IMG/VR virus record: IMGVR_UViG_3300037067_013742
Coordinates: 165,065-229,064 of that record
Direction: 5' to 3' (one strand)
DNA length: 64,000 nt
From: a virus
Taxonomy: Duplodnaviria; Caudoviricetes
The stretch's first letter is position 1. Each line of letters starts with the position of its first letter. This document shows positions 11,782 through 44,574 of the stretch, piece after piece. The notes below the pieces were generated by a model, which saw only the letters and a list, made by a program, of their open reading frames with translations, made no database searches and was not told the DNA's origin. Both the position numbers and the translations under genes were made by a program.

Positions 11782-12144
11782 TTAGCCGGTACCAACCTCT
11801 CCGTATAGGAGCTGGGGAGTGCGAGGATCTATCTCCACTCCTAGTTTCTTTGCCTCTCTTATAAAGAGCTCTCGGAGCTGTGATAAGGTAAGGTTTTGTT
11901 CTAAAAGCTTCTCAATAGGAATGCCGATATAGGAGGGTTCGTCTCCACCAAGAACTTCTATAGTCGTTTCCACGGCTACATCAAAGACTCCATGGCCACT
12001 GTAGCATTCATTATCTTCCCAGTCGGGTATAAGAACTTCCAGTAATTCTTGGAATTTTCTCCCCTCCCGGCTATATCCAGATAGTCCAACTATCATAAAG
12101 CTAGAGCTGCTTGAGTTACTTACCAACCCGTTTCTTATCTTCAT
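11782..12144 (-). CDS. VSNSS-tag family protein 1
   Basis: N-terminus MKIRNGLVSNSSSSSF. Confidence 0.8.
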   Translation of the reverse strand: MKIRNGLVSNSSSSSFMIVGLSGYSREGRKFQELLEVLIPDWEDNECYSGHGVFDVAVETTIEVLGGDEPSYIGIPIEKLLEQNLTLSQLRELFIREAKKLGVEIDPRTPQLLYGEVGTG

Positions 12145-13028
12145 TCTACTTTCCTCACTAACCTTGCTCGACCTCTTCTCTGGCCATCGAGACCAACATT
12201 TTTAGCCCTCATAGTTTCAAGAGCTTCTTTTTGGGCTGCGCCAATAAAGTTATCTATAAATGATATTGGAACAGACTTTCCAGAAACTAACTTATTGAGT
12301 AATGGCATTACAGTCTTTTCTTTCTTAATGAATGTCCAGTCTTCATGTAAACCCGTTACTCCGTTCCAAAGGAGTATCCTAATCGTTTCTGGGATAACTG
12401 AGGCAAGGTTAGCTGGTAGCGTGTTTCTCTTAAGGATTTCACCTAAGATCCATGCCCTATAGATTCTAAAGCTGCCAAATAGAGATGTGCTGTTACCATC
12501 TAAACACTTAGATGTTCTTATCAATGCTTTTATAGCGCCTCTAGGAAGAGCAATAGCGTGCTCAAAGGCTTGAAGTTCTTCTTCCGTAAGGCTGGCGCAA
12601 ACTTTTGGTGGTAGGTTTAGATCCCTTTTGCTATCTGTTGGAGTAGTCATTATGTCATATGCTTGTGATGGGTCTAGTACTATTGGTGCTTTGTCGAAGC
12701 CAAAAGTGCCTCTTGCGCATTTCCATCCGTAACTTTCGAGGGATTTTATTACATCGTTGTACTTTGTCTCGGCCACTTCTTTATTAAGGGGGATCCACCT
12801 TGTTGTCGTTTCGCCGTCAGAGAGGGTAACTTCATAGAGGGTCTTTCCGTCATATTCAAACCTTGATAAGGATACCCTCTTCTGCTGCGAAATAAGACTG
12901 TGGGTATAAGTAGCCTCCTTCTCGCAGAATGGTGCATGGGATTGGTAGAAGGGGCTTCTGACTATCTTCTCTTTGGGCTCGATGACTCCCCAAGATACAG
13001 GGATAGTAGTATTCTTTGACTTTTCCAC
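12141..13028 (-). CDS. Hypothetical protein
   Basis: 295-aa ORF within the operon. Confidence 0.55.
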   Translation of the reverse strand: MEKSKNTTIPVSWGVIEPKEKIVRSPFYQSHAPFCEKEATYTHSLISQQKRVSLSRFEYDGKTLYEVTLSDGETTTRWIPLNKEVAETKYNDVIKSLESYGWKCARGTFGFDKAPIVLDPSQAYDIMTTPTDSKRDLNLPPKVCASLTEEELQAFEHAIALPRGAIKALIRTSKCLDGNSTSLFGSFRIYRAWILGEILKRNTLPANLASVIPETIRILLWNGVTGLHEDWTFIKKEKTVMPLLNKLVSGKSVPISFIDNFIGAAQKEALETMRAKNVGLDGQRRGRARLVRKVE

Positions 13029-13032
13029 CAGA

Positions 13033-13935
13033 TCACACCTGAACGATAGGTGCTCTTGCTGCTACCTCAGAGATGGTTGCCGCTACTTGCGTTGGCTTGT
13101 TCTGAGCTGCGGCTTTCTGATCTGCCTTGTAAGCGGCCATTACGAATGAAGCCCTAAGCTTCCTAATGCCGGAGATATCTACTTCAGAGAGAACCGTATC
13201 TATCGCCTGATTCTTCTTCTCTACCTTCTTACAAAGGTCTCTAGCAATCTTCCTAGCCTGCTTAACAACAGTCTTTACCTCGGAGGCTACTTCGTCAGTA
13301 ACGATAGAGTCAAAGTGTCTTGCGTCGGCGATTGCTACCCTAATGAGCTCGGCTCTTACCCTAGCTAGAATAGCGTTCTTTTCAGTGTCTGGGAGCTCGA
13401 CAATTGCTTCTGGGGTCATGCTCTTTAGGAACCTAACAGGGGCTCTCCTGAGCGCTTCTAGGTCACTTTGCGTTAGGGCCTTGTCTACAGAGTCGGCAAT
13501 CTCTGCGATGTGGTCGGCGATAGCAGCAATAGCAGCCTGGTTGTTCTCGTCAATCTCGAAGAAGCCCCAGCGAGCGGCGATCTCACAGGTACTGGCCTTA
13601 TTGTTAAAGGCATCTATATCGGTCCTAATCTCTGTGATGATCTCCTTAAGTTCCTTCTCTCGACTGCGAGGACAGATCAGTCCGACTGATGTTGTTACAC
13701 AAAGTCGACGAAGCTTTGCGTATGCAACGGAGATTACGTTGGTACGCTCCTTGTACTCATCCTCGTTATCGATGATGGAGAAGGTCTTCCATTCACGAAT
13801 GCGCTTCTTATCTTCTAGATAGTTTTCTAGAACCTCACGCTTATAGTGAATACCACCCTGACGATGCAGCCATTCTGTAACCAAGATACCGGGCTTGATC
13901 TTCTGAATCTCAAACTGAACTTCTGCTTCACTCAT
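13033..13935 (-). CDS. Helical/coiled-coil protein accompanying the AAA cluster (possibly DUF3150-like)
   Basis: Ala/Glu/Lys-rich helical sequence directly downstream of the Ycf46-like ATPase. Confidence 0.45.
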   Translation of the reverse strand: MSEAEVQFEIQKIKPGILVTEWLHRQGGIHYKREVLENYLEDKKRIREWKTFSIIDNEDEYKERTNVISVAYAKLRRLCVTTSVGLICPRSREKELKEIITEIRTDIDAFNNKASTCEIAARWGFFEIDENNQAAIAAIADHIAEIADSVDKALTQSDLEALRRAPVRFLKSMTPEAIVELPDTEKNAILARVRAELIRVAIADARHFDSIVTDEVASEVKTVVKQARKIARDLCKKVEKKNQAIDTVLSEVDISGIRKLRASFVMAAYKADQKAAAQNKPTQVAATISEVAARAPIVQV

Positions 13936-43545: not shown

Positions 43546-43552
43546 AAACTTT

Positions 43553-43948
43553 TTAACCTCTCTCTTGGAGTATCTTCATTGCTCCGGCGTACTGCATTAG
43601 TTTCATAACATACTGGATCATTGGCTCGTGGTAGCTTATCTCTACTGAAATGATCTCCCAACTATCGTCTAGGTCATTGCCTAGATCTTTCATCTGGTAA
43701 TAACTCTCTTTAGTATCTGAGTCCCACCAAGCTGTATTCTCTCTTATGACGTGATCTATGTAGTGAAGAAGCTCTCTCTTATTCCGGGCGAGAATCTGGT
43801 TATCCTCATCTTCTAAATCTGAGACGAAATGAAGGAAATTCTCAGCAGTTGGAATTGGAAGACCATTAAATGGTACTGGGTCTTTCTTCAGAGCTAGGAC
43901 AAAGGAAGTAGAGGATGAGTTACTTACTAAGGAAGTTCTGGTTTTCAT
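43553..43948 (-). CDS. VSNSS-tag family protein 8
   Basis: MKTRTSLVSNSSSTSF. Confidence 0.8.
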   Translation of the reverse strand: MKTRTSLVSNSSSTSFVLALKKDPVPFNGLPIPTAENFLHFVSDLEDEDNQILARNKRELLHYIDHVIRENTAWWDSDTKESYYQMKDLGNDLDDSWEIISVEISYHEPMIQYVMKLMQYAGAMKILQERG

Positions 43949-44574
43949 GTATGGACCTCATGTAGAGTAAGAATGTCCAGGGTCTTTACCGTATCTCTAA
44001 TAGTTGAGAGGTCATAGTTGTCTACATCAATGACCATAACAGGAGTATCATCCGAGAGCTTATAATCTTCAATTCTATCTATTAAGGTAGTAGCTTCTGT
44101 AATAAAGCCATCTAGTGTTTTCAGGTCTATTACTTGACGATGCAGCTCCTGTTCGAACCGCTCCTCGATCCATTTCTTGATAGGTATATCGCTTGGATGT
44201 GGGAGTATCTTAGGCCGACCAGTAAGACAGTTAGTATTCACATATAGATCGCTGAGGAGATCCGTTGTTTCTATCCAAGTAGCGATCGCTTGCCTGGCTG
44301 TTGGTTTCTTTTCTAAAGACCGGAGGAAGTCTATTGTCTTTTGACGAAGCTCTCTTTGTTTCTTTAGTCGGCCGAGGGAAAAAGAGAGGTTACCCTTTAG
44401 CATGCCGACTGTATTTGTCTGATCTGGTCCCCATAGCCAGTGCCGATCGCTATCTTTCTTTAACTTAATACCCTTTAGGATAAGTCTTAGAAGGTCTAGT
44501 TGTTTTTCTGTATCTATAGCTAAGAGGAAACTAGCTGATGAGCTATTGCTCACCAGGCCGGTACGAACTTTCAT
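43945..44574 (-). CDS. VSNSS-tag family protein 9
   Basis: MKVRTGLVSNSSSASF. Confidence 0.8.
   Translation of the reverse strand: MKVRTGLVSNSSSASFLLAIDTEKQLDLLRLILKGIKLKKDSDRHWLWGPDQTNTVGMLKGNLSFSLGRLKKQRELRQKTIDFLRSLEKKPTARQAIATWIETTDLLSDLYVNTNCLTGRPKILPHPSDIPIKKWIEERFEQELHRQVIDLKTLDGFITEATTLIDRIEDYKLSDDTPVMVIDVDNYDLSTIRDTVKTLDILTLHEVHT

Follow-up and report, generated by a model that had tools for sequence, protein, structure and literature searches.

FxsB enzymes, in which a SPASM domain is joined to a domain of the radical SAM (S-adenosylmethionine) type, are encoded beside variable proteins that end in a conserved C-terminal FxSxx peptide, within STAND-linked conflict systems (Kaur, Burroughs, Iyer, Aravind 2020, PMC7159879). 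KpAvs2 is a proven antiphage STAND system that needs the radical SAM protein Avap1 together with Avap2, a small DUF6375 protein of unknown role (Bechon et al. 2024, PMC11564622). Here we describe a candidate protein-modification system in a Caudoviricetes virus. The stretch of DNA analysed (hereafter the window) is 64,000 nucleotides long and covers positions 165,065 to 229,064 of IMG/VR record IMGVR_UViG_3300037067_013742, that is, the last 64 kb of a 229,064-bp virus record estimated to be complete. Nine open reading frames (ORFs) of the window start with the same 16-residue peptide, hereafter the tag, and the family of one radical SAM enzyme, encoded at 42424-43545, recurs beside such tags in other genomes. 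The reading that we favour, and hold to be moderately probable on the basis of genomic linkage and of a predicted complex, is that the tag is a portable docking peptide, probably also a substrate peptide, for this one trans-acting enzyme.

The tag and its linkage to one enzyme family

All nine tagged ORFs lie on the minus strand and begin with M-K-[IVT]-R-x-[GS]-[LF]-V-S-N-S-S-[SA]-[STA]-S-[FY], with the motif at a constant distance from Met1. A purine-rich, Shine-Dalgarno-like run is found upstream of each of them. When scanned in six frames, the window and the complete 229,064-bp genome were both found to contain exactly these nine copies of the tag, with no other copy in frame. A reading of the window made from its letters alone (the sequence-only reading) had described these nine ORFs and their shared N-terminal tag, and our analysis bears out both the ORFs and their coordinates. 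It had also observed that the Ser codons of the tag switch between boxes. At tag positions 11-15, these codons indeed alternate between the AGY and TCN boxes among the nine copies, which argues for selection on the peptide and not on a DNA repeat. The consensus of the wider set of tags is MKIRxGFVSNSSSSSF (first 16-18 residues). Position 7 is mostly L in this phage (8 of the 9 window tags), and position 6 is Ser in three of the nine. In loci collected from the enzyme side (see below), N10, S11 and S12 are conserved at 100%, R4 at 99%, K2 at 98% and S9 at 97%, and tag residues 1-18 contain no Glu.

The tag and the enzyme family were found to be linked from both directions. The tag-seeded sample consisted of 96 fetched loci and the window (97 loci), from which 2,673 ORFs were clustered. 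The family of 42424-43545 lay within 10 kb of tags in 61 of the 97 loci, while the next family did so in 10, and it was the only recurrent non-tagged family beside tags. The sequence-only reading had proposed to search with a tag profile and to test for enrichment of particular radical SAM families among the neighbours; an enrichment was found, and it concerns this one family. In 59 of 59 cases, the enzyme gene shared its strand with the tag nearest to it, and the median distance between the two was 216 bp. As a rule, the enzyme gene is found 5' of the tag array, but the order in the window is tag-tag-enzyme. Conversely, a scan seeded with a 7-sequence alignment of the enzyme returned 80 viral loci, 79 of them newly fetched (L039 was already in the tag-seeded set). 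A strict tag pattern detected a tag within 10 kb of the enzyme in 68 of these 80 loci, and a hidden Markov model of the tag detected 330 tags in 74 of the 79 newly fetched ones. Five loci with no strict tag within 10 kb of the enzyme (L126, L146, L161, L171 and L173), among which is that of Klebsiella phage KP15, all had tags elsewhere on the contig. We are fairly confident of the enzyme-tag pairing. Two of the window tagged genes adjoin the enzyme gene and the other seven are 23-31 kb away from it, so the cognate enzyme would have to act on these seven in trans. No protease, transporter or full recognition element (RRE) domain of the type found with RiPPs (peptides made by the ribosome and modified after translation) recurred in the neighbourhood of the tags in the 97 loci, and the tag is therefore probably kept on the protein.

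The sequence-only reading had placed three of the four tagged clusters directly upstream of radical SAM genes, and had taken the tag for a shared recognition or modification site, or a docking strand, that lets one maturase process a set of clients. The gene positions are as it described, but neither Pfam nor PHROGs nor NCBIfam gave a radical SAM signature for the product of 10843-11679. The notion of one maturase agrees with the co-occurrence and with the predicted complex presented below; as for the adjoining radical SAM genes as partners, only 42424-43545 recurs. It could be argued from gene position, in the window only, that each tagged cluster has its partner in the radical SAM gene that lies immediately downstream (9900/10843, 17381 or 42424). 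This idea is already contradicted by what these genes are, respectively an RlmN/Cfr-like gene, a gene without radical SAM signature and a spore-photoproduct-lyase-like gene in the case of the first three, and by their failure to recur. Outside the window, 9900-10841 has a counterpart beside tags in locus L031 only, 17381-18133 in L066 only, and 10843-11679 in none; L066 is a fragment of a closely related phage and is, for most of the rejected neighbours, the one other locus. The profile of the cognate enzyme family also matched none of these three genes at E <= 0.01. We consider the chance that each cluster has its own downstream partner to be close to negligible. As the rejected neighbours do not recur beside tags, the positional argument holds for one cluster only.

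The enzyme, its predicted complex with the tag and the possible chemistry

Seven cysteines of the cognate enzyme (C76, C84, C87, C274, C303, C321 and C366) are invariant in all 46 aligned family sequences. The first three supply the three-cysteine motif of radical SAM enzymes, canonically CX3CX2C. Their spacing is CX7CX2C in the window copy, CX3CX2C in 26 relatives and CX6-8CX2C in 31 sequences, including the window copy. PF04055 (Radical_SAM) matched 39 of the 46 family members at E <= 0.01, with a best value of 4.8e-15, and PF13186 (SPASM) matched 32. The full SPASM motif has seven cysteines for two auxiliary 4Fe-4S clusters; only four C-terminal cysteines are conserved here, without the CX2CX5CX3C block. 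Since PF13186 matches nonetheless, this part of the protein is a reduced, twitch-like auxiliary domain. The nearest solved relatives in the PDB are SkfB (4e-6), SuiB (1.4e-5) and BtrN (2.5e-4), the last of which aligns to the C-terminal part. Among NCBIfam models, no anSME model matched the enzyme at E <= 0.01, and the only match was a weak one to a tungsten-cofactor maturase model. Enzyme residues 1-65 are covered by no Pfam match. The window's genome carries a single copy of the family. In three phage contigs, the cognate gene is present as two ORFs 0.8-1 kb apart (L030:6797-9108, L034:6388-8926 and L049:189-2000), and an intron, a homing element or a break is possible.

To model the complex of enzyme and tag, the enzyme alignment was combined with SAM, two 4Fe-4S clusters and, as partner chain, the first 35 residues encoded by 11782-12144, a gene distant from that of the enzyme. 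Co-folding had been suggested in the sequence-only reading and, for 42424-43545, it scored 0.81 (0.76-0.81 across runs), while the best of three controls scored 0.01. In a calibration that is rough (own alignments, riding ligands), this mark was attained by 58 of 80 solved complexes and by 2 of 110 mismatched pairs. The runs shared at least 91% of contacts and the pLDDT (per-residue model confidence) of the partner was at least 60. The tag profile matched PDB sequences only by chance, at the MKIRNSL of ribosomal protein bL36; the tag is thus present in no solved chain, and the co-fold result does not reproduce a known structure of this complex.

All of tag residues 1-20 are predicted by the model to contact the enzyme. 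Residues 1-6 would pair with enzyme residues 42-50 and 298-301, with strand pairing to the N-terminal segment 42-50, and residue 7 would be buried in the barrel amid enzyme residues 120, 147, 149, 171 and 198. The S9-N10-S11-S12 stretch is placed over conserved polar residues of the barrel and over the auxiliary-cluster domain. Many of the enzyme residues predicted to touch the tag are invariant: G44, R48-G50, D68, E70, Y88, Q120, N149 and T151, as well as Q198, N200, H202, C274, C303 and C321. In loci L105 and L106, the four tags all have H at position 7, and their enzyme (~10001-10990) is alone in carrying Q120S, with Q in the 65 others. The His7 tags and the Q120S enzyme are possibly a compensatory pair, although a concerted change of position 7 with enzyme residue 120, itself a predicted contact, is suggestive only. 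Leu at position 7 is also found in three of three tags of L109. A pocket covariation for Leu7 was considered and dropped, as only one of the seven enzyme positions specific to the lineage makes contact with the tag, a proportion that does not exceed chance.

Co-folding supports binding but cannot show catalysis, and the tag might accordingly be a docking handle only. The tagged proteins would then be interchangeable specificity or regulatory subunits, or inhibitors, of the enzyme, and its true substrate would be something else, for example a protein of the host, a nucleic acid or a small molecule that the variable body holds. A constant handle on variable bodies does resemble adaptors. However, in the model the catalytic barrel is filled by the tag, at the site expected for a substrate, and the complete invariance of N10, S11 and S12 goes beyond the usual need of a docking strand. 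In KpAvs2, the radical SAM protein Avap1 acts alongside a small accessory partner, itself a binder of the STAND protein (PMC11564622), which offers a precedent for such a handle, but homology of Avap1/Avap2 to the tag-enzyme pair could not be shown and DUF6375 is absent from the pair-bearing bacterial genomes. On balance, a handle that only docks seems unlikely to us.

We favour the tag as a docking and probable substrate peptide. The single enzyme 42424-43545 would serve the nine tagged proteins, two of them encoded next to it and the other seven in trans. With its basic start (residues 1-6), the tag would dock as a strand on enzyme segment 42-50, residue 7 would enter the barrel, and the enzyme would abstract a hydrogen within roughly tag residues 6-12 and leave a covalent change. 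Such a change is suggested by the conserved catalytic cysteines, the invariant N-S-S and the position of the tag in the barrel. The two-way co-occurrence and the co-fold together support the view that the tag is a shared recognition site, and probably a modification site, through which one enzyme serves an expandable set of clients. Candidate chemistries would be the conversion of a Ser side chain to an aldehyde, as by anSME and BtrN, a cross-link, or an epimerisation; by analogy, Ser-to-aldehyde oxidation of the anSME/BtrN kind would fit a serine-rich site. Two other candidates were dropped. A Phe7-Ser9 cyclophane does not suit this phage, where position 7 is Leu, and the predominance of Leu there argues against a Phe-based cross-link as a universal chemistry. 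A glycyl-radical site at G6 is at odds with the Ser found at this position in three window tags.

Several points weigh against our reading. The window copy of the enzyme scores 17 bits against a PF04055 cut-off of 29.5, and its CX7CX2C spacing is unusual, though such insertions are common in the family. Adjacency is common but not obligatory, with only two of the nine window tags next to the enzyme gene and the KP15 tags about 20 kb off. The co-fold expresses the confidence of a model, and the general pose of a peptide in SPASM enzymes is in the training data. The covariation at position 7 comes from one lineage for H and two lineages for L. Finally, the covalent change to the tag is a predicted one, and its probability is put at less than one half. 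If the enzyme does modify the tag, it would be a radical SAM maturase with many unrelated folded clients instead of peptides, and a new protein chemistry in phage biology.

The tagged proteins, their carriers and their genomic context

The bodies behind the tag are largely dissimilar and mostly acidic, in agreement with the sequence-only reading. The nine window bodies fall into eight BLAST clusters, the sole related pair being 18656-19126 and 19136-19525, and 319 tagged bodies fall into 116. The median length of tagged proteins is 127 aa, and their median net charge is -0.09 per residue (n=319). When the profiles of the 18149 and 18656 families were compared with each other, the alignment was confined to residues 1-25. 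In the AF2 monomer of 18149-18643, tag residues 1-12 have a pLDDT below 50 while the body is folded; in that of 18656-19126, the same holds for tag residues 1-13, and strand 1 of the body is made up of residues 16-24. This strand begins in both models with F16 and the next two hydrophobic residues. The possibility that the tag is simply a buried strand of one shared fold, raised as a counter-case in the sequence-only reading, disagrees with the unpacked residues 1-13 and with the unrelated bodies.

PHROG 7397, a 170-position profile of unknown function, groups some tagged proteins as one family. Eight of the nine window proteins match it, but only at profile positions 1 to 18-30 (E 9e-4 to 0.05), and the likeness is therefore that of the tag alone. 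An ordinary family of paralogues, in which the tag is the first strand and loop of a shared fold and the linkage to the enzyme reflects co-inheritance in a gene island, would account for this grouping, for the tandem arrays and for the hydrophobic start of strand 1. It is very unlikely in view of the short profile-profile alignment, the number of BLAST clusters and the unpacked first 13 residues in the monomer models. It would also have to explain why a Pfam domain was found in only one of 130 diverse members, and why the linkage to the enzyme spans T4-like coliphages, 500-kb phages and bacterial operons. A nucleotide-binding loop (PP-loop or other) of a shared fold was likewise dropped, the bodies being unrelated.

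Searches with individual proteins gave few clues to the function of the bodies. The nine tagged proteins had nothing meaningful in Pfam and NCBIfam, and PADLOC run on the window enzyme and one tagged protein gave no match. The 18149 model had no Foldseek match in the PDB at E <= 0.001, and the profile of its family had weak matches only among PDB sequences. A structure search with the 18656 model (VIA-align) returned only generic helical hairpins (Z <= 6.1). In the 18149-18643 family (relatives P0002-P0012), the invariant motifs listed in Table 1 look like a metal-binding or catalytic site.

The tag is widespread. A 35-position profile of the nine N-termini matched 21,207 representatives of 50%-identity protein clusters at E <= 0.001, and the match began at residue 1 in 144 of the best 150. 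With 129 of 130 diverse members lacking a Pfam domain, this number points to a large block of phage "dark matter" tied to one enzyme. In the best-scoring database proteins, P0013-P0021 and P0025, there are two tag matches per chain, and some of these matches are internal. Such chains may represent tandem genes annotated as a single one, or else true double-tag proteins. The tag pattern gave at least 592 matches in IMG/VR, and in 72 fetched viral loci the motif stands exactly at Met+8 in about 300 ORFs, which form tandem arrays with as many as 13 members per 20 kb. In a set of 185,579 species genomes, the pattern used, which would miss tag variants, matched 24 loci, all of them in metagenome-assembled genomes (MAGs).

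A tblastn search of cultured phages with three window bodies gave no match, and cultured carriers were reached only through the enzyme. The enzyme was found in 171 records of cultured phages and a homologue of the tagged protein KP15_102 in 175, with nearly identical genus counts. Carriers include the cultured T4-like phages KP15 (Klebsiella) and RB16 (E. coli); KP15, and RB16 with its pseudo-T-even relatives, each have the enzyme and two tagged genes. The KP15 proteins KP15_97 and KP15_102 share the start MKIRSGFVSNSSSSSFI, and the tagged N-terminal peptide expected in phages of the RB16/KP15 kind is SGFVSNSSSSSF.... In KP15, the enzyme gene is about 20 kb from these two genes, which belong to a series of small hypothetical genes whose strand is opposite to that of the adjacent baseplate genes. 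In the literature on the motif and on phage radical SAM enzymes, we found no published description of the N-terminal tag.

The pair is also present in bacteria. In five bacterial MAG loci, a four-gene operon encodes a canonical tag, the enzyme and a small unknown protein, and has at its head the gene of a SMEK_N/NACHT protein (about 950 aa) with PADLOC Avs2 matches. An operon of the same four genes is carried by pAt of Agrobacterium tumefaciens Ach5 (Table 1). There, the tagged 131-aa protein has the tag variant MKLKMDFVSNSSSTSF, and the neighbours are a (p)ppGpp synthetase, an integrase and a VapB toxin-antitoxin gene. DUF6375 (PF19902) was absent from the five bacterial genomes with the pair and had no match in any tagged protein tested, and a link of the tagged proteins to Avap2/DUF6375 was dropped. 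The tag-enzyme system may also bear on the radical SAM accessory genes of Avs2-type defence, such as Avap1/Avap2. With RB16, KP15 and A. tumefaciens Ach5 as carriers, it can be tested directly in laboratory models.

The genes around the tags encode RIIA-like, nuclease, thymidylate-synthase-type or other nucleotide-metabolism, DnaE and AAA+ proteins, and no head module is found there. The internal proteins of phage T4 carry a common N-terminal capsid-targeting peptide on diverse bodies. The prohead scaffold recognises this peptide, and the prohead protease cleaves it at L/I-x-E. By comparison, the tag could be a signal for sorting or turnover, either a capsid-targeting peptide or a degron for the ClpP-like protein 44590-45219 and the AAA+ protein 13928-15616. 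The position of both genes near tagged ones, and the match of the former to head-maturation-protease PHROGs, would suit such a role. This is nevertheless highly improbable: the ClpP-like and AAA+ families each occur in one other tag locus outside the window, the neighbours listed above are of another kind, the KP15 tagged genes lie among small hypothetical genes opposite in strand to the baseplate genes, and the tag contains no Glu for a T4-type L/I-x-E cut.

A role of the tag-enzyme system in phage-host conflict is likely, as suggested by its early-type gene placement, by the hypervariable, acidic, non-structural bodies and by the presence of the pair in bacterial STAND operons. In a bolder version, which we regard as doubtful, S-N-S-S would be converted into a reactive or cross-linked N-terminal module needed by all tagged proteins. 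The phage would thereby arm a changing arsenal of small acidic proteins through one maturase, and bacteria would use the same pair in STAND (Avs2-like) operons; the tagged proteins might be inhibitors or decoys in phage-host or phage-phage conflict. If true, this would be a new class of post-translational modification on whole proteins, common to both sides of the arms race.

Other features of the phage were observed. It carries unusually many radical SAM-type genes, including a weak match outside the window (G000:C1:150193-150492). The DnaE-like polymerase ORF (8200-9939, minus strand) ends in an intein-like stretch (CLSANTEVLV...). PHROG matches of the RIIA-like protein (52898-56215, minus strand, 1105 aa) cover residues 5-119 and 476-1093 only, and the unmatched insert of about 350 residues is possibly an intein or an inserted domain.

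Table 1. Tagged genes, cognate enzyme and neighbouring genes in the window, with the related bacterial operon
Position	Strand	Product	Remarks
9900-10841	-	radical SAM protein of RlmN/Cfr-like RNA methyltransferase type	TIGR00048, E 8.9e-21; unrelated to the tag system
10843-11679	-	Cys-rich 278-aa protein without family	no match by family searches
11782-12144	-	tagged protein, 120 aa	first 35 residues used as partner chain in the co-fold
13928-15616		AAA+ ATPase	near a tagged gene
16243-16596	-	tagged protein, 117 aa	tag at N-terminus
17381-18133	-	divergent radical SAM protein, spore-photoproduct-lyase or 'mobile pair B'-like	NCBIfam
18149-18643	-	tagged protein, 164 aa	invariant motifs of body family EFGW, INFAYLQ, YIDHQS, HTDNDN
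18656-19126	-	tagged protein, 156 aa	largest body family; motifs YIG..SW..DDETG.QFK...EAWYDG
19136-19525	-	tagged protein, 129 aa	distantly related to body family of 18656-19126
19525-19932	-	tagged protein, 135 aa	body cluster found in 10 loci
19937-20407	-	tagged protein, 156 aa	CxxC pairs (zinc-ribbon-like) right behind tag; body cluster found in 20 loci
42424-43545	-	cognate radical SAM enzyme, 373 aa	phrog_7293, E 7.7e-72
43553-43948	-	tagged protein, 131 aa	starts MKTRTSLVSNSSSTSF...; directly upstream of enzyme gene 42424-43545
43945-44574	-	tagged protein, 209 aa	starts MKVRTGLVSNSSSASF...; heads the T-T-R (tag-tag-enzyme) cassette; body a singleton in the sample
44590-45219		ClpP-like protein	adjoins two tagged genes; matches head-maturation-protease PHROGs
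L183:3586-8038 (NZ_CP011248 20854-25306)		four-gene operon, Agrobacterium tumefaciens Ach5 pAt	SMEK/NACHT protein, 121-aa protein, tagged 131-aa protein, radical SAM enzyme

Comparison with known systems

The capsid-targeting sequence of T4 is, like the tag, a short common N-terminal peptide on hypervariable small phage proteins. The tag differs from it in having no L/I-x-E site, in its position amid early-type genes and in its linkage to a radical SAM enzyme.

The anSME/AtsB enzymes and BtrN are radical SAM enzymes with auxiliary clusters, which act on a whole protein at a short motif and turn a Ser or Cys side chain into an aldehyde. The present system differs from them: the sulfatase motif C/S-x-P/A-x-R is absent from the tag, four C-terminal cysteines are conserved here and not seven, and the clients are unrelated proteins and not one enzyme family.

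The enzyme belongs to the superfamily of the RiPP maturases (SkfB, SuiB, CteB and PqqE) and, like them, has an auxiliary Fe-S domain at its C-terminus. In both cases, the N-terminus of the client has a conserved stretch for recognition, ahead of a variable remainder, and one enzyme can serve several precursors encoded next to it. RiPPs derive from short precursors whose leader is removed, with a protease, an exporter or both in the cluster; the clients found here are predicted to fold and their median length is 127 aa, and there is no second recurrent family beside the tags. In place of short peptides there are predicted folded proteins, 80-280 residues long, with as many as 13 in a locus, and the genes for many of them lie far from that of the enzyme. 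In addition, it is the conserved and not the variable part of the client that is predicted to lie in the active site, and the carriers are mainly phages. As for a PqqD-like RRE on the maturase, no Pfam match covers enzyme residues 1-65, and the co-fold pairs tag residues 1-6 with residues 42-50 of this region. We found no published description of a single phage radical SAM enzyme that would have many unrelated folded proteins as clients.

KpAvs2 (PMC11564622) likewise combines a STAND system with a radical SAM protein and a small accessory protein, and the STAND proteins of the MAG and pAt operons match Avs2 models. The head is an Mrr nuclease in KpAvs2 and SMEK here.

The nearest published parallel that we found is FxsB with its FxSxx-COOH peptides (PMC7159879). 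Both systems have variable proteins with a short conserved terminal peptide, a radical SAM-SPASM enzyme and operons with STAND NTPases, and the usual tag contains F-V-S. The conserved peptide of the tagged proteins is not a C-terminal F-x-S-x-x; its matches start at residue 1 in 144 of the best 150. In FxsB systems, the peptide is C-terminal, is released by a peptidase and belongs to a STAND/vWA-MoxR context; in the present system, the tag is N-terminal and its position 7 is L in eight of the nine window copies.

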